This document shows, in pieces, positions 1,000 through 21,563 of a stretch of DNA of 64,000 nt (positions within the stretch are counted from its first letter, which is position 1; the number at the start of each line of letters is the position of its first letter). Made by a program: the position numbers and the translations under genes. Location of the stretch: the IMG/VR virus record IMGVR_UViG_3300037722_000240, positions 1 through 64,000 of that record; one strand, given 5' to 3'. Below the pieces are notes generated by a model that saw only the letters and a list, made by a program, of their open reading frames with translations, did not search any database and was not told the DNA's origin. The stretch comes from a virus (lineage: Duplodnaviria > Caudoviricetes).

Positions 1000-2508
1000 A
1001 TGAAAAGAGGGTTTGAAATTATTGATTCTGTAGGTATAGAATTAGAGTTTTCTAATATTAATAGAGAAGATACTAAATTTTTAACGGATATGAAAAAGTT
1101 TCTTCCTGGATTTCAAGTTAAGCATGATGCTTCTTGTGAAAGCAAAGTACTAACTTTTGCTGGACAAGAAGTTGAGGCTAATGCTAAGACTCTAAAACAA
1201 ATGGCACCTTATTTTCTTAATACAGTAATTGGTGGAGAAGTAGCATCCCCAGTGATTGATTCATGTTCTCCAGAATGGGTAGATAATATTTTTTCTCTTT
1301 GTGAATTACTAAGACAACACGGAGAATTGGAAGATACTGTAAGAGATAGTTTCCACGTTCATGTTAATATCTCCGAACAAGCCCCTCTATTTGTTTTGAA
1401 AAATCTTCTAAAACTTTCAGCCGCATATGAAGCAGTAATGTTTAGACTTGGAGGAATGGGTCGAAATAATAGAGGAGAAGAAAATTTCTTCTGTTATCAA
1501 AGGCCTTATCTTGGAAATGGACCTCCAGTAGTTATGATTGGTAAAGAAAATTATCCTATTCTATGTTACGAGGATTTGATGCAAAGTAAGGACAAAGAAG
1601 AGTTTTTTGGAAGATATGGGGATTCATATTATCATTTTGACCATAGAGCAAGATATGTAACACAGAGATATATGGTAACAAATTTTTACTCAATATTAAG
1701 TATGGGCTCTTTTGAATTTCGTACAGCTAATAAAACACTTAATCCTAGATATATTATTGCATGGACTAACTTTTGTAAGGCTTTTGTACAAAAAGCTTGG
1801 GTAGGTCCATCTTTGTTAGATGAAATTACTTTTGAAATGCCTCTCTATAAAGGCAATGTAATAAGTATGGATGAATTTTTGAACGCCTTGAAATTTTTAC
1901 CTTTATTAGAGCCTTCAACTATTGATATTTTATTAGAAATTTGGGAATCCAGTCCTACACCAAGATTTGATAACAAATGGAGGTATACTCATCTTAGAGA
2001 CCCAACAAAATTTTCAACTATAATGTATGCGCCACATACAATAAGTGGTAAAATAGAAAAACCAGTTTTTGAGGATATTCATAATCAAGTTCCTGAAATA
2101 AGAGTTCCTGTAGAAGAATTAGGTATAGGAATTGAATGGGATGCACCAGTTGTTAATATTAACAATGAGAATCAAAGAGAAGTTATTCAAGATAGACTTT
2201 GGAATGTATCTTTTAATGGCGGCAATCAATTTTATGATATTAGAGGTCTTATGGACTTTGCAGTTATTGATAATCATATAATGTATGGCCCTATAAGTTA
2301 TAATGATATAATTTTTTATATAGAAATGCGGCTTAGAGTTAATGATGCTGGACGAGTTTTCTTATATTCTTGGCAACATCGGGATAATATTGATGTGGAA
2401 GGTCAATTTGAAATGTTTGGTATGCATATTAATTTTCCCGATGCTTATAATAGAGTAACAGATTACATACAGGACGTTTGGCCCGAATTTTACGAGGAAA
2501 ACATGTAA
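1000..2508 (+). CDS. putative amidoligase (glutamine-synthetase/GCS-like COOH-NH2 ligase, Amidoligase_2-type)
   Basis: Motifs VGIELEF, HDASC, GGEVASPV, SFHVHVN, FEFRT; strong RBS. Confidence 0.8.
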   Translation: MKRGFEIIDSVGIELEFSNINREDTKFLTDMKKFLPGFQVKHDASCESKVLTFAGQEVEANAKTLKQMAPYFLNTVIGGEVASPVIDSCSPEWVDNIFSLCELLRQHGELEDTVRDSFHVHVNISEQAPLFVLKNLLKLSAAYEAVMFRLGGMGRNNRGEENFFCYQRPYLGNGPPVVMIGKENYPILCYEDLMQSKDKEEFFGRYGDSYYHFDHRARYVTQRYMVTNFYSILSMGSFEFRTANKTLNPRYIIAWTNFCKAFVQKAWVGPSLLDEITFEMPLYKGNVISMDEFLNALKFLPLLEPSTIDILLEIWESSPTPRFDNKWRYTHLRDPTKFSTIMYAPHTISGKIEKPVFEDIHNQVPEIRVPVEELGIGIEWDAPVVNINNENQREVIQDRLWNVSFNGGNQFYDIRGLMDFAVIDNHIMYGPISYNDIIFYIEMRLRVNDAGRVFLYSWQHRDNIDVEGQFEMFGMHINFPDAYNRVTDYIQDVWPEFYEENM

Positions 2509-3786
2509 ATGTGCCAACTAACAATGTTCGATACATCAACTGAGACAAAATTAACCAGACACTTAGTTAGACCATTAACTGAAATGAATATTCTTGGAAT
2601 TAATGCGAGTGCCAATCATGATGGTTTTGGATATATGTTATTTGAGAATCCTGGAGAAATTTTTAAAGATGGGGTTTCGGCTACACATTATTGGACTAAA
2701 GAATTTTCTAAATTTTATAAAAAATATGAAAATCCTAATGGTATATATCATGTAAGAGCAGCAAGTGGATTTGGAGTAAATAAAGTTGTAAAAGATGAAA
2801 ATGCCCATCCATTTAAGCATGGAAATATTGTAGTTGCTCATAATGGAACTCTTAGAGAGAAAGAGGATTATTTTCTTTCAGACAGGGAACTTGATATTTC
2901 AAACTTATATAATAATTTGTGGATTGATAGTGAGCGGTTTTGTTTTGCCCTTAATGAAATTTGTGGAGATGATTTACTAGAAGCAAAACATATTGAACAA
3001 GCCTATGATATGTTTACTGATATATTTGCCTTTTTAATCTATGATATTAGACAGCCTGAAAAGGTATTTATAGTTAGAGGTAAAACAAAGCAATTACATT
3101 GTCTAACTGTTTACAGTGGTAAGAAAAGAATTGGTATGATAATTAATACAGGTCAATGGGAATTACTATATTTAGCAAAAATGATAAAATATACTCTTGG
3201 TGAATATTTGAATATAAATAAATTGTCTGTAGGAGTTGCAATATTAGAAGAAGAGGGTATTTATGAATATACCATTGGTAGTTATAATATAGGAAAGCCT
3301 GTACGTAGGATTAAAGAAACTTCTTCTACTGATTTTAAGAAACCCGTTGCTGATGTACAACCTTCTTGGAAAAAGTCTAGCTTTCAACCAGAATTTAATG
3401 ATATAAATACTCCTACCCACAATAAACAAACTATTCAAGCTTATTGTCTCATTGCTGAGCTTTGTCATGAAATGAACTTATCTCTTAAGGAGATTTGGAT
3501 ACTATCCGAAATATTCAATGGTAAGAATATATGCTTATATAATCTACAGGAAATGGAGGATTTTCTAGAATTATTGAAAGAAATAGATAACGATGCTACT
3601 TATGCAGGAAAAATGAAGGAATGGGCTAATCTAAAAGAAGAATTTAAAATGAGTGCTTTAGAGTTTTATAAACAAACTGATATTCATTTTCCTTATTTAT
3701 TGGCATCTAGAAAGGATATTAAATCTGTTGGAGTTAAAATTAGAAAACTAATTAAAAACGCCAAAAAGGAGGAAAACAAAAAGTGA
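2509..3786 (+). CDS. class II (Ntn) glutamine amidotransferase
   Basis: N-terminal M-C nucleophile; HDGFG, HVRAAS, NAHPF, HNGTL, DSE motifs. Confidence 0.85.
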   Translation: MCQLTMFDTSTETKLTRHLVRPLTEMNILGINASANHDGFGYMLFENPGEIFKDGVSATHYWTKEFSKFYKKYENPNGIYHVRAASGFGVNKVVKDENAHPFKHGNIVVAHNGTLREKEDYFLSDRELDISNLYNNLWIDSERFCFALNEICGDDLLEAKHIEQAYDMFTDIFAFLIYDIRQPEKVFIVRGKTKQLHCLTVYSGKKRIGMIINTGQWELLYLAKMIKYTLGEYLNINKLSVGVAILEEEGIYEYTIGSYNIGKPVRRIKETSSTDFKKPVADVQPSWKKSSFQPEFNDINTPTHNKQTIQAYCLIAELCHEMNLSLKEIWILSEIFNGKNICLYNLQEMEDFLELLKEIDNDATYAGKMKEWANLKEEFKMSALEFYKQTDIHFPYLLASRKDIKSVGVKIRKLIKNAKKEENKK

Positions 3787-4541
3787 AATATTTGCTCTAT
3801 AATCCTAAATCCTATATTACTGCTAGAGCTTTAGCTTCTCAATTAGGTTTAAGATATCATAAAAATTCAGAAAGAGTTGCAGATTTAGGAGGATATCCTG
3901 TAATTAGATACGGAAATTCTATGGGAACATTTCGTAGAGATACAGACTTAAATGCCCCCAATGTAATTAAAATGTGCTCGGATTCTTTGAAATTTTGTAG
4001 ATGGGCTAAGGATAATGATGTTTTTACACCATTTTATGAGAAAATATTTTCACAGACTCTTCCTGAGTTTCCTTTTCTTCTAAGAAAAAGGTGGCACAGA
4101 GCGGGAAGAGATATTATAATAATTCATAATGAATTAGATATGAAACATGCTTGGAGTAAATTTGGACAACAAGAAATTCTTACAAGGTATTCTGTACCAC
4201 TTTATAGAACAACGTATGAACTTAGAGTTCATGTAGTTTTAGATAATATTCCTAGAATATTTGTAAAACAAAGAACCGCAGATGTAGCGGATGGAGATAT
4301 TATTAGAACTTCCCCTAGAGGTTGGCACTATTCTATTAGAGAAAGTTTAGGCTATAAATATGAAAAAGCTCAGGCTCTAGCACTAAATATAGCTAAAAAG
4401 ATTGGACTCAAATTTGGTGGAATTGATATGGCATGGTGTCCAGACTATAAACAATATATTATTTGGGAAATTAATACAGCGCCAGGACTTTCTTTAAATA
4501 GTTTAGCTATTTATGCCGATGCATTGAGACCCTATGTTTGA
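3783..4541 (+). CDS. ATP-grasp ligase (RimK/phiEco32-like)
   Basis: YELRVHVV, FGGIDMAW, IWEINTAPGL motifs; GTG start coupled to upstream stop. Confidence 0.85.
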   Translation: MKYLLYNPKSYITARALASQLGLRYHKNSERVADLGGYPVIRYGNSMGTFRRDTDLNAPNVIKMCSDSLKFCRWAKDNDVFTPFYEKIFSQTLPEFPFLLRKRWHRAGRDIIIIHNELDMKHAWSKFGQQEILTRYSVPLYRTTYELRVHVVLDNIPRIFVKQRTADVADGDIIRTSPRGWHYSIRESLGYKYEKAQALALNIAKKIGLKFGGIDMAWCPDYKQYIIWEINTAPGLSLNSLAIYADALRPYV

Positions 4542-5355
4542 ACTTTTTATAGGACAACGCCAAATAGTTAGAGAATTAGATGCTATTGCTGCGGGATTAA
4601 AGAATAAAAGAGATGGTATAAATATTCTATTAAGAGGCCCTGCTGGTTGTGGTAAAACAACTTTATCCAGAATATTCTGCTATGAACTAGCAGGTAGAAA
4701 CTTTAGTTACCAAATCCCCAAGGATAATTTAAGATTACCATACGGACTTGACGGATTAAGAGCACACATTATAGATGAAATTCATATGGCAAAAGATTTT
4801 GAAAATTTTTATCCTGTTATGGATGCAGGAAACAAAGTGATAATATTTTGTACAACCGAGGCTGGAGTTCTTCCTGACCCTTTCACAAGCAGGTGTATAA
4901 CTCTTTCTTTTGCAGAATACAGTATGCAGGATATTTGCACAATTATAGTAAATTATGGAAAAGACCTAAGTTTTCCAATAACAGAAGGAACTGCTAAATT
5001 AATTTCAGAGCGTTCTAGAGGAAATCCCAGAGTTGCGAAAAATTATTTGAAAAGAGTTAAGTTTTTAATTGATAGAGGTTATCATAACAAAACTATTCCA
5101 GGAATTATAGCCGCTTTTGAAGAAATTGGAATCTTTAAAGGAGGTTATACAGATTTGGATATGAGATATTTGAAATTTCTGTCAAGAATAGGAAGAGCAA
5201 GTTTGCAAACAATTTCTAGAAGTTTGGGTATAGATATAGAAACACTTAAAAATGATATTGAACCATTTCTTATGGATAAAGGCCATATATCAATTACAAG
5301 TCGAGGACGTAATTTTATTGACTGGAGAAATGGAGAGTTAAGAAATGAGCAGTAG
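4534..5355 (+). CDS. ruvB: RuvB-like AAA+ ATPase (Holliday-junction branch-migration motor homologue)
   Basis: FIGQ, Walker A GPAGCGKTT, Walker B IIDEIH, TTEAG..F.SR, SRGNPRVA, C-terminal winged-helix EPFL...G.I..TSRGR, all matching RuvB hallmarks. Confidence 0.85.
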   Translation: MFELFIGQRQIVRELDAIAAGLKNKRDGINILLRGPAGCGKTTLSRIFCYELAGRNFSYQIPKDNLRLPYGLDGLRAHIIDEIHMAKDFENFYPVMDAGNKVIIFCTTEAGVLPDPFTSRCITLSFAEYSMQDICTIIVNYGKDLSFPITEGTAKLISERSRGNPRVAKNYLKRVKFLIDRGYHNKTIPGIIAAFEEIGIFKGGYTDLDMRYLKFLSRIGRASLQTISRSLGIDIETLKNDIEPFLMDKGHISITSRGRNFIDWRNGELRNEQ

Positions 5356-6670
5356 TTTCGGTATAGATGATATTAGTATAATAACTTTTGCTGGAGAGGA
5401 AGCAGCTTCTAGAGAAATAACATCAAATCTTGATGGTATAGAAACTTGGGGGACTCCCCATATGTTTAAAGGTAAACTCTCTATGATTCTTTTACATCAA
5501 TATAACGACAGAATGATGTTGACTGTAAATTCAAAATTTGCGGACGATTCTTTAGGAGGAAGAGGCCCTGATATTCAAGAAGAACTAAAAAGAATAGTGG
5601 TAGATGCCGTTATTGACTTTGAAACAAGAAGAAACTTTATTCCCAAAATTTTAATTTTAGCGGATGATTTTACTCCATTATTTTATGCAAAAGAGAAGAA
5701 TCAAAAATTCTACCTTGATATAGATGAATCAGACCTCAAAAATTATAACTTTGAACCCATAACTATTTCAGCACTTAAAAGTCTAATAGATTCTTGTAAT
5801 ACCACTGCTTTAGTATGGTGTGTAGGAAATGTTGTTATGAAAAATTTCATTAGTTGGCCCTCCAATATCTTAGGTGCATTAGTTTTAGATGCCTATTGTG
5901 ATAAAGCAATTCCTCTATCTTCTGTCAGAGGTAAAGTGCTTACTGAAATTACTAGAGACGGTTTTGGATTTTTGGTTTCCTATTTGTGGAGATTTCTTTA
6001 TCCAGATAAGAGTTTAAATCATGACCAAATTAGTCTTATATATGAACAATTTAGAAAATCAACAGGTGGCTCTAAAAATGCTTTACCACATATTCCTTTA
6101 ACTTGGAATGATGAGGACATTGAGGGTATTAATATCACAAGAATTAAGAGAGATATTGAAGTATTTACATCTAATAAAGGTAAAAACGTAGATATAGGTA
6201 CATCTAAAGAAATTGTAAAAGTCCATAATCCCGTTTTTGATAACGAGGAATTAAATACAGCTCTTGATATGATTAATGATGGACTTAGAAAAAGCATGAA
6301 AAAGAGTATTACAAAAGATACTGGCAGACCTAGCTATAATCTTTCTGAAATAGTATCACAGTCTGCTACAGAGAATCAAATATATTTAAATGATGAAACC
6401 TATAATCAAGTTCACGATGTAAAGATTGATTGTGATATTGAAGTTTCCAGTTGTATATTACTAAAACAAAATATAGCTGTTGGTCAGCTTGTTTATGGAG
6501 TATTAGAGATAATAGTTCCTGCGGGTATTATAGCAGAGGAGGAAAGAGAAAATATTGAAAAACAATTAGGAGAATCAAAGGGCATTCCTTTGATAATTTT
6601 TGAAGAAAAAGATACGGAATCTATAGCTAAACACTTTGCAGAAATTCTAGAAGAGCAGGAGGAAGAATAA
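5345..6670 (+). CDS. hypothetical protein (441 aa) coupled to the RuvB-like gene
   Basis: Long ORF with GGAG RBS, overlapping the upstream gene; no family recognised. Confidence 0.8.
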   Translation: MSSSFGIDDISIITFAGEEAASREITSNLDGIETWGTPHMFKGKLSMILLHQYNDRMMLTVNSKFADDSLGGRGPDIQEELKRIVVDAVIDFETRRNFIPKILILADDFTPLFYAKEKNQKFYLDIDESDLKNYNFEPITISALKSLIDSCNTTALVWCVGNVVMKNFISWPSNILGALVLDAYCDKAIPLSSVRGKVLTEITRDGFGFLVSYLWRFLYPDKSLNHDQISLIYEQFRKSTGGSKNALPHIPLTWNDEDIEGINITRIKRDIEVFTSNKGKNVDIGTSKEIVKVHNPVFDNEELNTALDMINDGLRKSMKKSITKDTGRPSYNLSEIVSQSATENQIYLNDETYNQVHDVKIDCDIEVSSCILLKQNIAVGQLVYGVLEIIVPAGIIAEEERENIEKQLGESKGIPLIIFEEKDTESIAKHFAEILEEQEEE

Positions 6671-7083
6671 TGGAAAATATGCCTAAAATCTTATGTCCAC
6701 ATTGTGATAGAAATTTATCTTTCAAAATTATATTTGAAAATATTTATGGAAAAGTAAAACTAACAAGTAGAGAAAATACTATTAATATAGGATTATCTGG
6801 ATTGGTTATGCAAAATAGTAAAATAATTCCCACTAGTTTATTTTGTAAATACTGTAATAAGGATATAGAGACTTCAAAAATTATTATATTTAATGCTAAA
6901 AATAAAACGTCGGAATCTGCTATTGATGATTATATGGTTCTTAAGGTTAGCAAGGAGGGTAATAGGGCACAATATTTACTTTACAATAAACATGATGAAA
7001 AACTTGAAAAATTACTCCATGATTACAAAGTATATGAATATTCTGTAGAACAGCTTCCTTTGTTATTGAATGTTCAAGGGTAA
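6670..7083 (+). CDS. hypothetical Zn-finger protein
   Basis: CPHC...CKYC pair; start overlaps upstream stop. Confidence 0.7.
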   Translation: MENMPKILCPHCDRNLSFKIIFENIYGKVKLTSRENTINIGLSGLVMQNSKIIPTSLFCKYCNKDIETSKIIIFNAKNKTSESAIDDYMVLKVSKEGNRAQYLLYNKHDEKLEKLLHDYKVYEYSVEQLPLLLNVQG

Positions 7084-8080
7084 AAAAATGTCCACTATAA
7101 CTTTTGGAACTGACCCAGAAGTATTTATTTATAGAGATACTAAGAAATATGGTTCTAGAAATATTCCTGTTCCTATCATTATTCCACCAGCCGCACTAGT
7201 AGATGATTATGGCGCAGAAATTCATGAAGAAGATAATAAAAAGGTTCTTGTAAAAGACCGCGATTTTCAATGGTCAGAAGATGGTGCAGCAATTGAAGCC
7301 CAAATTCTTCCATCAGATACTTCTTATAGCTTTAATAATAAATTTGCAAGTTCTTTGTCGAGTCTTTCATCTTACATTCGTAATTTGAATCCAGAACTAA
7401 AAGTTTCTACTCTTCCTTTGGGATATTTTGATACAAATATTTATTGGAAGAAAAGAGATGAAAATTTTAGACAGTGTGTTATATTTGGATGTGACCCTGA
7501 CCAATCTCCAGATATTTATAGAGAAATTGGCTTAGAATCTTGGGATAATTATGGAGAAGAATTAGACGTTAGTTCACATACTTTTAGATATGCTGGCGGA
7601 CATCTTCATATACAAAGTCCAGAAAACAATCCAGAACTTTATTTTCCTATATGGGATATGGCATCAATAATTTTTGACACTATAATTGGTTTGACTAATA
7701 CATCACTTGAAAGAACTGCTGACATAAAGGAATTAGAATTAGCTAGACTTAAGTATTATGGAAAACCAGGAAGAATCAGATTGCAAGATTATGGACATGG
7801 AAAAATGGGAATCGAGTATAGAGTTATGTCTAATTATTGGCTTACTGGTTTAAGAAGTAATATTAATACTATTCTATCTTCGGCAAAAATAGCTGTTAGT
7901 ATTATAGAGGAGGGTCAATCAGAGGCATTTGTGAATCAAATTTATCAGCGAATTCCAGAAATTTATCAAACTATCATAGCATTGGATGAATCTTCTGCAA
8001 AACAAATTCTTGAAGAAGAACTTTCAAAAGCACTAGAAAATGGGTATTTAAATTTGACTAGTTTTTATGACGGGAGTTAG
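7070..8080 (+). CDS. phiEco32-like COOH-NH2 ligase type 2 (likely start ATG 7088)
   Basis: TFGTDPEVF, DGAAIE, FGCDPD, RYAGGHLHI, YGKPG.IR..YG, GIEYRVMSNYWL. Confidence 0.9.
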   Translation: MFKGKKMSTITFGTDPEVFIYRDTKKYGSRNIPVPIIIPPAALVDDYGAEIHEEDNKKVLVKDRDFQWSEDGAAIEAQILPSDTSYSFNNKFASSLSSLSSYIRNLNPELKVSTLPLGYFDTNIYWKKRDENFRQCVIFGCDPDQSPDIYREIGLESWDNYGEELDVSSHTFRYAGGHLHIQSPENNPELYFPIWDMASIIFDTIIGLTNTSLERTADIKELELARLKYYGKPGRIRLQDYGHGKMGIEYRVMSNYWLTGLRSNINTILSSAKIAVSIIEEGQSEAFVNQIYQRIPEIYQTIIALDESSAKQILEEELSKALENGYLNLTSFYDGS

Positions 8081-8082
8081 GA

Positions 8083-8868
8083 ATGGTGGCAAAAATAAGC
8101 AATAAAAACTTGATTAATAAATTGAGTAGTTTTATACAGTATAAAAATAAAAAATCTAAAAATCAATATTCATGCCAAAGCGTTATTTATGGAACTGTAT
8201 CTGAAACAGAATCAAATACTAATATAAGTACATCAATTTGTTTTGCATCAATTCATGCTAAACTAGAAAAATTTAATAAGAATACAAATTTTTATTACGT
8301 TATAACTCATGTTCCAGAACTATTTAATATGAGTAGTTTAATAAAAGAATTAAATACACTATTTGAATACTATATTGAAATTAGAAAAATAAACTCAGGC
8401 CAACCTAATAGCCTGATATTGGAGGTTTGTAATATTAAGGGTTTTGAAAATAATGTAATTAAACATTGTACACTTATATTACTATCAGTTATTATTAGAG
8501 CAATGGATGAAGAGGGTGCCCGAATGATTCTTAGTAATAGAAAGGGTAAGAAAACACCTAAAATAAAAAACATTACTGAACTTCTTAAAGAATTTATTCC
8601 CGCATCTAATATGGGGCATAATGTAAATGATGCTATTTCGTATATTTATAGAACACGTAATAAATCTTTATTCAACTCTGCTATTAAAAGATATTTAATG
8701 ACTATTAGTGCAATATGTGGGGTTGAAAGAAATAATAAACTAAAAATCAAAGAGCCTATTAAGGAGTTTATGAAAGGCTATAGAGCAAGATTTACATTTA
8801 TTAGACAGACTACTAGTTATAAAATTCTAGAACATATTTATAATACATCACAAAAGGAGAAAGCATAA
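8083..8868 (+). CDS. hypothetical protein, paralogue of 9513-10244
   Basis: Shares CFAS and L(S/A)(V/S)IIR(A/T)MD motifs with 9513-10244. Confidence 0.75.
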   Translation: MVAKISNKNLINKLSSFIQYKNKKSKNQYSCQSVIYGTVSETESNTNISTSICFASIHAKLEKFNKNTNFYYVITHVPELFNMSSLIKELNTLFEYYIEIRKINSGQPNSLILEVCNIKGFENNVIKHCTLILLSVIIRAMDEEGARMILSNRKGKKTPKIKNITELLKEFIPASNMGHNVNDAISYIYRTRNKSLFNSAIKRYLMTISAICGVERNNKLKIKEPIKEFMKGYRARFTFIRQTTSYKILEHIYNTSQKEKA

Positions 8869-9516
8869 ATGAATGTTGGAGTTTCAACACAGGGAATGTT
8901 TGACCACAATATGTGGCAAAGACTTATTAGAACTGTATTTCATGATACTTCAATAAATGTATTTCAGCTAAAACACGACAGTCCTTTGAAAGAATTTGAA
9001 CATTTAAATTTCTTTATTTTTGATGGGGGTGCTGATGTTCACCCTAGACTGTATGGAGAAATTAAAGAAGATAGAACTTTTGTAAATGAATATAGGGATT
9101 TTGTTGAAATTAACACCTATGCAACAATGGAGGCACTATTTCCTGATATTAATTTTGTAGGAATTTGTAGGGGGCATCAATTTTTAAATGTGATGCGGGG
9201 TGGAACTTTATTCCAGGATTTAGGTAAAATTAATAAACCCCACCCAGCACTTCATAGTGTTAATATTGTTAATAAAGAATCTTTACTTTATAAATATGTT
9301 AATGCTCCAAAAATGTGGGTTAATTCTGCCCACCATCAGGCTATCAAAGTTCTTGGAGAAGGATTAATATCTACAATGGTTGATTCTAAACATAATATTA
9401 TTGAAGGCATTGAGGGGGATAAAATTAGAGCAGTACAAAGTCACCCTGAAATGTGGACAAGAGATTATTCACACGTTAATGAAGTTCTTAGTTATCTATT
9501 CAGGAGGAACGAATGA
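8869..9516 (+). CDS. class I glutamine amidotransferase-like / peptidase C26 (gamma-glutamyl hydrolase family)
   Basis: DGGADVHP..YGE, GICRGHQ.LNV..GGTL, VNSAHHQAI, VQSHPE (Cys-His-Glu triad). Confidence 0.9.
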   Translation: MNVGVSTQGMFDHNMWQRLIRTVFHDTSINVFQLKHDSPLKEFEHLNFFIFDGGADVHPRLYGEIKEDRTFVNEYRDFVEINTYATMEALFPDINFVGICRGHQFLNVMRGGTLFQDLGKINKPHPALHSVNIVNKESLLYKYVNAPKMWVNSAHHQAIKVLGEGLISTMVDSKHNIIEGIEGDKIRAVQSHPEMWTRDYSHVNEVLSYLFRRNE

Positions 9517-10244
9517 CTGATAAAGAATTAATAAACGAACTAAAGAAAATACATCAACGCACTATCAAAGATAGATTTGAAAGATATGATACTTTCTTTA
9601 ATTTCTTTATTGGAAAAGAACATATAAAAGATTATTGTTTTGCATCCCTTTTTAGAATATTGAGGGAAAGACATCTATCACAACTTTATGCTACAAGAAT
9701 GCTATTGTATTTTAATAGAAATGAAACGATATTTGATTATAATACAATTTTTAATGAATTAAACATTGTTTTTGGTGGAATGTTTACAATAACACGGTAC
9801 TATAGCGGTTCAAGAACACAAAGAATTATTGATATTAAATCCGATGAAAAAGCTCATAATATACTAAGGTGGATGGGGCTTTATTTGATGGCAAGTATTA
9901 TTAGAACTATGGACATGAAATTTTATAGCCAATGGCGGGAGGCTATTAATGATAAAAGAATTACTCGCATAGAAAATCTTAGACAATTACTTGCAGTAGG
10001 TCATAATAAAATTTCATGGATTAAGTCACTTTGCGTAAACAATATTATGAGTAACTCTCCTCAAGACAGTGATTATTACGATACTTTTCTATCAAATATG
10101 CAATCAATATTTGGTGTTGATGGTATTTATTCCACAGTAACTAACCGCGATTGTTCAACGGCTCAAAGTAGTTTTAGAGGGTGGTATCAACAAAGAATTA
10201 CTAATTATCTTTTTGAACTATTAGATAGAAAACAGCATGAATAA
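9513..10244 (+). CDS. hypothetical protein, paralogue of 8083-8868
   Basis: Coupled start; YCFASL and LMASIIRTMD motifs. Confidence 0.75.
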   Translation: MTDKELINELKKIHQRTIKDRFERYDTFFNFFIGKEHIKDYCFASLFRILRERHLSQLYATRMLLYFNRNETIFDYNTIFNELNIVFGGMFTITRYYSGSRTQRIIDIKSDEKAHNILRWMGLYLMASIIRTMDMKFYSQWREAINDKRITRIENLRQLLAVGHNKISWIKSLCVNNIMSNSPQDSDYYDTFLSNMQSIFGVDGIYSTVTNRDCSTAQSSFRGWYQQRITNYLFELLDRKQHE

Positions 10245-10404
10245 GCTATTAAATTTTATTATCAAATTATTATTCAATATTGATAATAATTCAAATAATA
10301 TTGAATTAGCAGTAGAAGATATTGACTTTAATCCTAAAGAAGATGAACAAGATTTGGTGGAGTTTCTATTAGAGGACCAGCACCACGGAGTATTAGGTGG
10401 GTAG
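10237..10404 (+). CDS. small acidic hypothetical protein (55 aa, not in ORF track)
   Basis: ATG 10237 overlapping upstream gene end; open to TAG 10402-10404 (MNKLLNFIIK...HGVLGG). Confidence 0.5.
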   Translation: MNKLLNFIIKLLFNIDNNSNNIELAVEDIDFNPKEDEQDLVEFLLEDQHHGVLGG

Positions 10405-10455
10405 TGGGTGCTGGTCCAGAATTCGGTTTAGTATGAGAACCAAAAGGAGAGTCTG

Positions 10456-10698
10456 ATGTACCAAGTGAACGTAGCCTTTAGAGGATACATATGTAGATAT
10501 TTTATTAACACCAGTGATAGAGCATATGCACTAAAAATAACTACGGCTTGTTTTAGACAAGATTTTCCTGGTAAAAATATTTCTTCTATCGTAGCTACTT
10601 ATATTGGAGATTTTATTGCTATTCTTACACAAGAGGGCGCTGTAGAATATACTAGAACTATTCCTCAATTAAAGCTAGAGGAGGGTTTACCTAAATGA
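10456..10698 (+). CDS. hypothetical protein
   Basis: AAGGAG RBS; coupled to next ORF. Confidence 0.7.
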   Translation: MYQVNVAFRGYICRYFINTSDRAYALKITTACFRQDFPGKNISSIVATYIGDFIAILTQEGAVEYTRTIPQLKLEEGLPK

Positions 10699-10928
10699 CA
10701 GAAGAAATGTTAGTAATATTACCCTGCCCTAAGTGTATGAAATTAGAAAAAACAAATATCATAGAATTAGCTAATGAAGAGGCTATAGTAAGAAATATGG
10801 GTATTCCTTTACAAGAAGGAATATTAACTATTAGTTTTGTTTGTAGTAATTGTGATACCACTGTTTATGCAGAAATCAAAACCGCTGAATATATGCAACA
10901 ACAGTTGAATGAATTTGGGGAAATTTAG
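10695..10928 (+). CDS. hypothetical Zn-ribbon protein
   Basis: CPKC...CSNC; ATGA overlap. Confidence 0.7.
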   Translation: MTEEMLVILPCPKCMKLEKTNIIELANEEAIVRNMGIPLQEGILTISFVCSNCDTTVYAEIKTAEYMQQQLNEFGEI

Positions 10929-10995
10929 TGCCTCTAAATACTATAAGAGACATTATTTGCTTTGGTCTATTTGCAGTTTGTATACATTTGTTTAG

Positions 10996-11223
10996 ATGGT
11001 GTATAAAAGAAATGAGGAGAAACTGATGAAACTAAGTATAGCAAAGCAGTTACAAACAGAATTAGGTAATTTAGATGTAATAATTTCAGATAGAGCTATA
11101 AAAATTACAACATTGCAGGCCGAGCAGAAGATTCTATTAGATAATCGAGAAAGAGTAAAGATTGCTTTAGATAAAGTCAGCGATTATAGAGACTATACTA
11201 ATGATAAAGTTTGCTTACTATGA
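10996..11223 (+). CDS. hypothetical coiled-coil protein
   Basis: GAGGAG RBS points to an internal ATG (MKLSIAKQ...); heptad-like pattern. Confidence 0.6.
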   Translation: MVYKRNEEKLMKLSIAKQLQTELGNLDVIISDRAIKITTLQAEQKILLDNRERVKIALDKVSDYRDYTNDKVCLL

Positions 11224-11234
11224 TACGAATATCC

Positions 11235-11283
11235 TAATTTTTATATGGAGGCTGTTACTCAGAAATACTAACAAACTTTGTTT
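11235..11283 (+). promoter_or_regulatory. TAATT-N14-GTTAC-N18-TTTGTTT motif, copy 2
   Basis: TAATT 11235, GTTAC 11254, TTTGTTT 11277, intergenic. Confidence 0.65.
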
Positions 11284-12233: not shown

Positions 12234-12455
12234 ATGTCTGATAAAGAAGTTAAATGGAAGTTTTCAACAACTTATGATACAGTAAATTCAAGTGTTACTT
12301 ATAGTCGAATTGAAGAATGGAGTAAGGCAATGAAAGAGAAATATAACGATAAAATTCTTTGTAACAATTGTGGTAATGTAATTTCAAAAGAAGTCCAAGA
12401 AGAGTTTGAAGGATATTGTTGTATTGACTGTAAGTATGCAGAATATATATTATGA
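12234..12455 (+). CDS. hypothetical Cys-rich protein
   Basis: GGAGGT RBS; CNNC...CCIDC. Confidence 0.7.
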   Translation: MSDKEVKWKFSTTYDTVNSSVTYSRIEEWSKAMKEKYNDKILCNNCGNVISKEVQEEFEGYCCIDCKYAEYIL

Positions 12456-17658: not shown

Positions 17659-17731
17659 GGGCCCATAGCTCAGGGGTTAGAGCAGCCGGCTCATAACCGG
17701 TAGGTCGTAGGTTCAATTCCTACTGGGCCCA
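17659..17731 (+). tRNA. tRNA with CAU anticodon, most likely tRNA-Ile2 (lysidine type); elongator Met not excluded; CCA not encoded
   Basis: Acceptor GGGCCCA/TGGGCCC, D-arm AGCTCAG-GGGTT-AGAGC, anticodon loop CTCATAA (CAT 17692-17694), T-arm GTAGG-TTCAATT-CCTAC, discriminator A; lacks the initiator C1-A72 mismatch. Confidence 0.92.
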
Positions 17732-17734
17732 CTA

Positions 17735-21077: not shown

Positions 21078-21563
21078 ATATCATGGTACCTAAGACCAGC
21101 AACCCTAATTGCTTATACCTTTCCTGTTACCGTAACCAGTGGTACCTATACTATATAGCATAAAGGGATTATTGAACCATGGGTCCATTTTTAGTCGCCC
21201 ATGAACATATGTTCTACCGGGTTATTGGTACATATATTCTAATTGCTAATTTGAACCGTGTTACTGGTACACTGGTACCCATATATATACTATACATATC
21301 GTGGTACCGGGGAGCCTAATCGGGGCGAACTGGTATCGTGGTACCAATGCTGATGGTAGTGGTGCAGATTTTGTGAAAGTACACTAACCAGGAAAATGGT
21401 ACCAAATATCCACATTTTCTAATTGGCTTAACGGTACCGTTACCGGGGTATCATGGTACCACACTTTCTAATTGCCAATGTGGTACCGTTACTTTGATAT
21501 CGTGGTACCAGATATTCTAATTGCCTCATTGGTACCGTTACTGAGATATCATGGTACCGGAAA
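21078..21563 (+). repeat. GGTACC-rich degenerate array with three clear 49-bp tandem units
   Basis: Units start 21417, 21466, 21515 (TTCTAATTG..GGTACCGTTAC..RTATCRTGGTACC); degenerate units upstream; 12 GGTACC between 21085 and 21558. Confidence 0.85.

Follow-up and report, generated by a model that had tools for sequence, protein, structure and literature searches.

An operon of an uncultured phage that begins at position 1000 of the 64,000-nucleotide stretch of DNA analyzed here (the window, which is the first 64 kb of the 77,677-bp linear virus record IMGVR_UViG_3300037722_000240; CheckV completeness, 87%) is best explained as an eleven-gene, single-unit variant of the phiEco32-type amidoligase cassette. 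The core of this cassette is already known. New are a RuvB-derived ATPase, the accessory proteins encoded by open reading frames (ORFs) 5, 6, and 8/10, and a mini-protein with a conserved Gly-Gly tail. The mini-protein was missing from the gene list of a preliminary description of this DNA, and we rate it as the most informative lead to the substrate. By analogy with ligases that act on protein C termini, we consider it close to, if somewhat short of, an even chance that the Gly-Gly tail is the working substrate of the operon ligases.

Ten plus-strand ORFs were found between positions 1000 and 10244 at exactly the coordinates given in the preliminary description, and the tight coupling it had proposed was borne out: the successive junctions from ORF1 to ORF10 were 0, -4, -8, -11, -1, -14, +2, 0, and -4 nucleotides, and most of them had a Shine-Dalgarno site. 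The gene count stood for these ten ORFs but overlooked an eleventh coupled gene, ORF11 (10237 to 10404), which overlaps the stop of ORF10 by 8 nucleotides. All signals described here also lie on the plus strand. A terminator-like hairpin with a T-run (654 to 688) ends the upstream unit, and the best sigma-70-like match upstream of ORF1 (TTGACA-16-TAGATT, 865 to 892) is a putative promoter by its consensus. A second hairpin of 13 to 14 bp (10374 to 10417; -30.5 kcal/mol, z of -3.1), which has no T-run, covers the last ORF11 codons and the stop and is probably the 3' boundary of the operon transcript or a stabilizer. The element TAATT-N14-GTTAC occurs in nine copies, against 0.4 expected (577 to 600, 11235 to 11258, 15253, 15770, 18015, 20754, and 21420 to 21541), and its placement fits a phage-specific promoter or unit boundary. 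Copies at 577 and 11235 flank the operon, and none occurs within it. Together with the upstream hairpin and the sigma-70-like site, this pattern fits a single transcription unit.

Domain searches against Pfam, PHROG, and NCBIfam agreed with the gene content predicted earlier (ligases, amidotransferases, a RuvB-like ATPase, proteins of no known family, and a zinc finger). Three of the products are predicted to be intact ATP-dependent carboxylate-amine ligases. ORF1 (1000 to 2508, 502 amino acids) is an Amidoligase_2 protein, resembling glutamine synthetase (GS) and GCS2 ligases (Pfam E value of 3e-10; 40.7 bits against PF12224, for which the cutoff is 22). Its C-terminal extension of about 140 residues is variable and is missing from shorter relatives (367 to 387 amino acids), and its homologs formed 49 clusters at about 40 to 55% identity, encoded on contigs with an unchanged gene order. 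ORF3 (3783 to 4541, 252 amino acids), a RimK-like ATP-grasp ligase, matched phrog_2599 (E value of 2e-18) and, weakly, the Pfam RimK model (E value of 0.003; 17.6 bits, under the 21-bit cutoff). ORF7 (7070 to 8080, 336 amino acids) is a phiEco32-type COOH-NH2 ligase (type 2, GS-like) that matched phrog_3815 over residues 57 to 316 (E value of 7e-23) and fell below the cutoff of Pfam PF14395 (E value of 0.034; 13.8 versus 25 bits). Two further products are predicted to be intact enzymes of the glutamine amidotransferase (GATase) or gamma-glutamyl hydrolase type with a Cys nucleophile, one a Cys1 N-terminal nucleophile (Ntn) enzyme and the other a C26 enzyme. The first, ORF2 (2509 to 3786, 425 amino acids), is a class II (Ntn) GATase or amidohydrolase that matched GATase_4 (E value of 6e-7; 29.2 bits against a cutoff of 23) and GATase_6 (E value of 7e-5), with a family-specific C-terminal domain of about 200 residues. 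It begins with Met-Cys, as do its homologs whenever the called start is the gene start; otherwise Met-Cys lies inside the longest-ORF call. The second, ORF9 (8869 to 9516, 215 amino acids), is a class I GATase/Peptidase_C26 protein (E value of 1e-26, 94 bits) that aligns with Lin1909 and PuuD and has an intact Cys-His-Glu triad; its best NCBIfam PuuD match (E value of 3e-8) was far under the cutoff of that model.

Degenerate catalytic residues, which the preliminary description had named as grounds against its reading, were not seen. In an alignment of six loci (30 to 61% enzyme identity), 12 to 25% of the columns were invariant in the enzymes, and every expected catalytic residue was among them: E14, E16, H42, E47, E80, E109, E111, R115, H119, H121, R223, E239, and R241 in ORF1; C2, R83, N112-G113, and D140 in ORF2; K162 and E229-x-N231 in ORF3; E17, H178, and H180, among 79 invariant residues, in ORF7; and C100, H192, and E194 in ORF9. 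ORF1 and ORF2 adjoin in nearly all loci, and the C26 gene often lies beside ORF7 in other cassettes, which weakly suggests two ligase-plus-glutaminase pairs. The earlier proposal that the C26 enzyme is an eraser survives as one option, but a role as the glutaminase partner of the adjacent ligase is equally possible.

Kinship to the amidoligase/GATase/ATP-grasp clusters of phiEco32-like phages, also proposed earlier, was supported at the protein level. A tblastn search with ORF7 matched 209 phage records, annotated as COOH.NH2 ligases, at less than 30% identity, and in phages of the phiEco32/LUZ24/7-11/CW02/RIO-1 type, ORF7 matched COOH-NH2 ligase genes and ORF3 matched ATP-grasp genes, with identities of 22 to 29%. 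Salmonella phage 7-11 and Vibrio phage Vp_R1 encode a COOH-NH2 ligase, an Amidoligase_2 protein, a class II GATase, and an ATP-grasp enzyme in another order, and the Vp_R1 cassette additionally has a gamma-glutamyl cyclotransferase (GGCT). The two kinds of cassette have in common five enzyme families in a phage early/middle operon (COOH-NH2 ligase, Amidoligase_2, RimK-like ATP-grasp, Cys1 class II GATase, and a C26 or GGCT-type gamma-glutamyl enzyme) and differ in gene order. As the preliminary description stated, the cluster studied here is the larger one and has an added AAA+ protein, the RuvB-like ORF4; it further adds ORF5, ORF6, ORF8/10, and the Gly-Gly-tailed mini-protein. No homology to ORF5, ORF6, or ORF8 was detectable among the cassette neighbors in 7-11 and Vp_R1. 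The host phage has a tape-measure gene and is therefore taken to be long-tailed, whereas phiEco32-type phages are podoviruses. Iyer, Abhiman, Burroughs, and Aravind are said to have predicted the phage amidoligase cassette in 2009 (reportedly in Mol Biosyst 5:1636), with the families PF14395 and PF12224. The literature that could be read still treats the function of the cassette as a prediction; we found no paper there that reports its substrate or links a phage amidoligase to a carrier protein or a Pup-like tag.

When metagenomes were scanned with the ORF7 family as the seed, 56 loci were returned. All loci collected in this work (numbered with the prefix L) were annotated with hidden Markov models (HMMs). 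Consistent with the operon proposed earlier, its genes are kept together in relatives. The canonical order 1-2-3-4-5-6-7-8-(8)-9 was seen in about 20 fetched metagenomic loci, enzyme identities among loci with recurring gene order went down to about 35 to 40%, and the arrangement is far beyond chance. The RuvB-like gene still followed the ATP-grasp gene in loci with an ORF7 identity of only about 28 to 33%, while one sub-lineage (L044, L049, L050, L052, and L056) is without it. In the distant or rearranged forms (L074 to L078, L088, L090, L012, and L081), ORF5 and ORF8 were unrecognizable. Nucleotide-metabolism and DNA methylase genes surround the operon in relatives. GGACT or GGCT genes were seen in L004 (19480 to 19857), L005 (15009 to 15386), and L007 (14906 to 15349); one relative has such a gene about 1.2 kb downstream of its operon, and in Vp_R1 it is part of the cassette itself, a further hint of gamma-glutamyl chemistry.

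ORF11 encodes a 55-amino-acid mini-protein in which the body varies and the C-terminal tail, L-L-[DE]-D-x-x-x-G-[IVM]-x-G-G-stop, is conserved; it ends ...FLLEDQHHGVLGG just within the 3' hairpin. In relatives, small ORFs of 42 to 105 amino acids that overlap the last operon gene or lie 0.7 to 1.1 kb downstream have the same tail, with the consensus L-[LI]-[DE]-D-[KM]-x-x-G-[IVM]-x-G-G-stop over the last 12 to 14 residues; their N-terminal parts are mutually unrelated (hydrophobic, acidic, basic, and one transmembrane-like). An HMM of the last 24 residues was searched against 41,748 stop-to-stop segments from both strands of all loci. It returned 17 matches, 14 of them distinct, and all 17 were on the operon strand at the operon 3' end or within about 1.1 kb of it; the next-best segment had an E value of 3.9. 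Pairwise identity was 53% among the 14 distinct tails and 10% among the bodies preceding them, and D(-9), G(-5), G(-2), and G(-1) were invariant in all 14. A collection of 5.8 billion proteins contained 20 tail clusters, every one with a length of 55 to 72 amino acids and GG terminated, in which position -5 was Cys in one cluster and Ser in another; no Pfam family could be assigned to any of them. Ten mini-proteins searched against Pfam, even at an E value of 10, matched no family and gave no match to Pup (PF05639). A 105-amino-acid member of the tail family (L040, 5711 to 6028) has an N-terminal hydrophobic, transmembrane-like segment, and the other bodies look soluble. In L049 (about 9050 to 9178) and L050 (about 12240 to 12365), the tail reads ...IEDMKNGVGGG and is followed by IKCH before the stop, a form that resembles a precursor in need of C-terminal trimming.

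One lineage also appears to have transferred the tail to a different body. The ORF that follows the C26 gene in the L002/L010 lineage ends ...KILGS or stops short at ...LLED, and a 65-amino-acid protein ending ...FLNDKLESVLGG (L002, 12 to 209; L003, 374 to 571; L010, 2055 to 2252) is encoded about 9 kb upstream, directly after an N6/N4 DNA methylase gene. Its counterparts at the same position in L001 and L004 have no tail. With a decayed tail after the C26 gene and an intact one on another protein, selection seems to keep the tail and not the body, and the pattern suggests that the tail is a portable module maintained somewhere in the genome. A shared beta-grasp fold is unlikely for the bodies, which have no sequence relationship to one another and may comprise only about 30 residues. 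The tail is retained in the RuvB-less loci L049, L050, and L052, which argues that the AAA+ protein is not its sole reader.

Because the tail is conserved on unrelated bodies beside the operon, we favor it as the candidate acceptor of the ligases. In the reaction of ATP-grasp and GS-like ligases, a carboxylate is first converted to an acyl phosphate, to which an amine is then coupled; Cys1 Ntn and triad GATases either supply glutamine-derived ammonia or, like PuuD and EgtC, hydrolyze gamma-glutamyl amides. RimK-family ATP-grasp enzymes act on protein C termini (RimK on S6 and LysX on LysW). The operon enzymes would thus form amide bonds of the glutamyl/glutaminyl type through acyl-phosphate intermediates, and would use ammonia from glutamine to amidate carboxylates or else trim off gamma-glutamyl groups. 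The acceptor would be the free C-terminal alpha-carboxylate of the Gly-Gly tail, with the mini-protein as a carrier or primer comparable to LysW with LysX, S6 with RimK, or TglA with its ligase; alternatively, the mini-protein could be a tag that is handed on to targets, as Pup is. The RuvB-like protein, ORF5, and ORF6 may form an accessory motor-adaptor sub-module that works on nucleic acid or on protein. Of the targets suggested in the preliminary description (host envelope, nucleotide, or an anti-defense metabolite), none is pinpointed by the present evidence.

Two known carrier systems come close to this scheme. In LysW-LysX/ArgX and RimK-S6, a RimK-family ATP-grasp enzyme modifies a small acidic protein at its last residue, and in LysW-type systems the protein carries the growing product until a hydrolase releases it. 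However, LysW ends with EDWGE on a Zn-ribbon body, while the tails described here end ...G-x-x-G-G on unrelated bodies, the downstream enzymes differ, and of the two LysW hallmarks, an EDWGE-tailed acidic protein and a RimK-family ATP-grasp partner, the operon has the second only. In PEARL-type systems (TglA/TglB, 3-thiaglutamate), a small protein with a conserved C terminus is a reusable primer for ATP-driven amino acid addition, modification, and cleavage. PEARLs are LanB-like and use aminoacyl-tRNA, whereas the ligases here are of the ATP-grasp and GS-like kinds.

Several observations weigh against the tail as ligase substrate. We know of no case in which a C-terminal Gly-Gly is the acceptor for any of these enzyme families, and the tail might serve for docking or regulation instead. 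L004 and L005 have an intact operon, yet no tail protein was found in the 21 kb of sequence available, and in L012, L074 to L078, L081, L088, and L090, where the enzymes and the RuvB-like gene are retained, the HMM detected no tail protein. The small ORFs in the 7-11 and Vp_R1 cassettes likewise showed no common C-terminal tail.

The absence of a detected tail protein from some operons is easier to accommodate if the cassette makes or remodels a small amide-linked metabolite or an envelope/peptidoglycan peptide by gamma-glutamyl-type chemistry, a classical explanation that we judge doubtful while granting it real weight. The product might then block superinfection or reprogram the host, and the mini-protein might be a regulator or an unrelated passenger. 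The enzyme families have small-molecule precedents (GCS2/YbdK, PuuA/PuuD, EgtA/EgtC, MurT/GatD, and glutathione synthetase), and GGACT/GGCT genes lie close to some cassettes (L004 and Vp_R1). The pairing of a GS/GCS2-like ligase with a gamma-glutamyl hydrolase, which is a C26 enzyme in PuuA/PuuD and a GATase_4-type Ntn enzyme in EgtA/EgtC, is indeed the same as that found here. However, those pairs act on free small molecules in bacteria, and the sub-cutoff PuuD match of ORF9 does not amount to orthology. A modification of the cell wall that prevents superinfection has been suggested for phiEco32, a proposal that a passage of PMC10580990 attributes to Iyer et al. 2009. Against the classical explanation, domain searches of the operon revealed no transporter, membrane, or cell-wall-binding domain. 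It also does not account for the Gly-Gly tail, with its strong and position-specific conservation beside the operon, or for the relocation of that tail to another body in one lineage.

The tail would also be accounted for if a GS-like ligase joined it to lysines of host or phage proteins in the manner of pupylation (Pup, PafA, Dop, and Mpa of Actinobacteria), optionally after C-terminal extension by the ATP-grasp enzyme, with the Cys hydrolases maturing or removing the tag and the AAA+ protein processing the targets; we consider this unlikely, in its outline and in these details. PafA and Dop are members of the GS-like superfamily of carboxylate-amine ligases; their partners are a disordered acidic protein of about 64 amino acids that ends in GGQ or GGE and an AAA+ protein. 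Pupylation and the operon resemble each other in ligases of the broad GS-like superfamily (two in the operon), an AAA+ ATPase, and an amidohydrolase step, and Pup, like the 42- to 105-amino-acid mini-proteins with their acidic helix-like stretch and GG end, is small and conserved chiefly in its acidic C-terminal region, which in Pup ends Gly-Gly-X. The precursor-like form of L049/L050, with four residues past GGG, fits this scheme as well, and PafA (Z of 4.4) and Dop (Z of 3.8) appear among weak fold matches to ORF8. Against this, the mini-proteins have no Pup family match and end with Gly and not with Glu or Gln, the ligases do not appear to be PafA/Dop orthologs (no PafA/Dop model was among the NCBIfam matches of the operon proteins), there is no proteasome or protease partner, and the AAA+ protein resembles RuvB and not Mpa, and one sub-lineage can do without it. 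The ORF8 fold matches were also below noise, and profile comparison of ORF8 with the ligases was negative. A search of the record for the ThiF/E1 adenylating enzyme (PF00899) on which E1-dependent ubiquitin-like modifiers rely gave no match.

The RuvB-like ATPase bears on the remaining readings. ORF4 (4534 to 5355, 273 amino acids), an AAA+ protein with a C-terminal winged helix, matched RuvB_C (E value of 5e-12), NCBIfam RuvB (E value of 6e-33), and RuvB proteins in the PDB (E values of 1e-13 to 3e-22), and it aligns with RuvB in Walker A and B, the arginine finger, sensor 2, the lid, and the winged helix. Walker A (G35-K41-T42), Walker B (D81-E82), R120, and R166 were invariant in the six loci. 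By these alignments, ORF4 is clearly derived from RuvB. However, its 113 to 114 bits are far under the RuvB equivalog cutoffs of 282 to 299 (TIGR00635/NF000868), and it is about 60 residues shorter than RuvB. A RuvB segment of roughly 20 residues that separates Walker B from sensor 1 is missing, with about 4 residues facing positions 132 to 154 of Campylobacter jejuni RuvB. By the RuvAB structures, this segment would be the presensor-1 beta-hairpin that docks RuvA domain III. A RuvA_N profile search of the record, which is 87% complete, found no RuvA, and ORF4 probably could not work with one. The protein shares the AAA+ motifs of the RuvB Holliday-junction motor but is shorter, lies in a ligase operon, and has no RuvA in the record.

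The RuvB-like gene might serve recombination or replication and be carried along in the operon as a passenger without a functional part in it. This is conceivable, since the phage has its own RecA, DnaB, PolA, and nucleases and one sub-lineage manages without the gene, yet we regard it as improbable. Wherever it is present, the ORF4-like gene comes right after the ATP-grasp gene, overlapping or abutting it, rearranged and distant loci included, with the exception of L012 and L081, where an ORF of about 65 amino acids lies between the two. The lack of RuvA and of the presumed RuvA-docking hairpin also speaks against a passenger. Among 50,697 phage records, no amidoligase cassette had a comparable RuvB-like gene, the matches there were ordinary bacterial-type RuvB, and no close ORF4 homolog occurred outside such a context. 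The intervening ORF (65 to 67 amino acids; L081, 15239 to 15436; L012, 7941 to 8144) does not end in Gly-Gly and might be a lineage-specific mini-protein partner. A passenger ORF4 would be compatible with the other readings, and the likelihoods given here overlap and do not add up to unity.

The most far-reaching form of the tail-as-substrate reading is that these cassettes are protein-tail directed as a class, with a portable Gly-Gly tail that in this lineage is extended, amidated, or both and then conjugated to targets in an E1-free, ubiquitin/Pup-like tagging in which the RuvB-derived AAA+ protein handles the tagged substrate; we think it distinctly improbable in full. A nucleic acid target, with the RuvB-like motor, ORF5, and ORF6 bringing the ligases to phage DNA or RNA for amide-linked hypermodification, is very unlikely. 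In its favor, the architecture of the RuvB DNA motor, with its RuvB_C winged helix, is retained in ORF4, part of ORF5 resembles a winged helix, and nucleotide-metabolism and DNA methylase genes surround the operon in relatives. Against it, the 77.7-kb record has no thymidylate-synthase-type (hydroxymethylase) gene, the ORFs scanned include no DNA kinase or transglycosylase, the RuvB-like gene is missing from the otherwise intact L044, L049, L050, L052, and L056, classical cassettes have no such motor, and the ORF5 match is weak (Z of about 5 to 6).

The phiEco32-type cassette is present in hundreds of phages, and the operon offers two handles on it, namely, a co-inherited mini-protein whose sole conserved part is a free Gly-Gly C terminus and the RuvB-derived ATPase. 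With the mini-protein, the long-standing question of the substrate can be put to a direct test. Should the tail be the acceptor, a simple in vitro reaction would lay open the chemistry of the entire family of enzymes, and if tail-directed tagging were true, the 17-year-old question of the substrate of the phiEco32-type cassette would be solved. If the tail is not the acceptor, the operon is one more uncharacterized copy of a known cassette.

The proteins outside the enzyme set evolve faster, with just 2 to 4% invariant columns in ORF5, ORF6, and ORF8 across the six loci. ORF5 (5345 to 6670, 441 amino acids) belongs to no known family and has 22 relatives in 1.84 billion representative proteins; 2% of its columns were invariant, none of them a catalytic-looking residue. 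Its AlphaFold model was of moderate confidence (predicted local distance difference test [pLDDT] score of 72), and its middle part (residues of about 168 to 252) was weakly winged-helix-like by VIA-align (Z of 5 to 6). An assignment of ORF5 as an RNA-ligase adenylyltransferase (Foldseek E value of about 1e-3; template-modeling [TM] score of 0.17 to 0.19) was rejected, as the family has no conserved Lys or KxDG. The ESM Atlas held nothing usable for ORF5 or ORF10. ORF6 (6670 to 7083, 137 amino acids) is Zn-ribbon-like with two Cys pairs (CPHC ... CKYC), of which C12, C59, and C62 were invariant in 32 sequences, and hhalign detected similar Zn-ribbons in L081, L088, and L090, marginally in L012, and not in L077.

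ORF8 (8083 to 8868, 261 amino acids) is an alpha/beta protein without a known family, and ORF10 (9513 to 10244, 243 amino acids) is the second member of its family. The two were paralogous, as had been noted earlier, with a BLASTP E value of 4e-7 and one HMM that detects both, and the presence and position of ORF10 differ among relatives. C53 and R139 were the sole invariant residues of ORF8 in 33 sequences. Its model was good (pLDDT of 80 and predicted TM score of 0.84) but gave nothing at an E value below 1e-3 against the PDB and BFVD, and a PDB sequence profile search was also negative. A GS/guanido-kinase fold for ORF8 (PafA, Dop, GCL, YbdK, and arginine kinases; VIA-align Z of 3.7 to 4.7, sub-noise) is no more than a lead, and hhalign of the ORF8 family against the ORF7 and ORF1 families was negative.

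The phage is tailed, with tape-measure, portal, and large terminase genes on the minus strand; PolA, RecA, DnaB, nucleases, and a DNA methylase are encoded on the plus strand. Megablast of the operon against the 50,697 phage records found no DNA-level relative, and tblastn with ORF1 found no match there. IMG/VR contained one locus of the same type (L011), and near-identical DNA was found in soil and sediment metagenomes. In 185,579 prokaryote species genomes, the ORF7 family had a sole match, L092, at 30% identity on a 2.9-kb contig binned to a Woesearchaeota metagenome-assembled genome; it is probably a mis-binned viral fragment and thus gives no clue to the host. The composition of the window is mosaic between 16000 and 30000, where the G+C content climbs from about 30%, as in the early region, to 43 to 49% at 16 to 24 kb and 26 to 30 kb; the G+C-rich part surrounds a tRNA-Met gene (17659 to 17732) and several ORFs without a Pfam match. 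Between the operon hairpin and the next TAATT-N14-GTTAC (10456 to 11223) lie three small plus-strand ORFs of 80, 77, and 75 amino acids, the middle one of which carries CPKC...CSNC.

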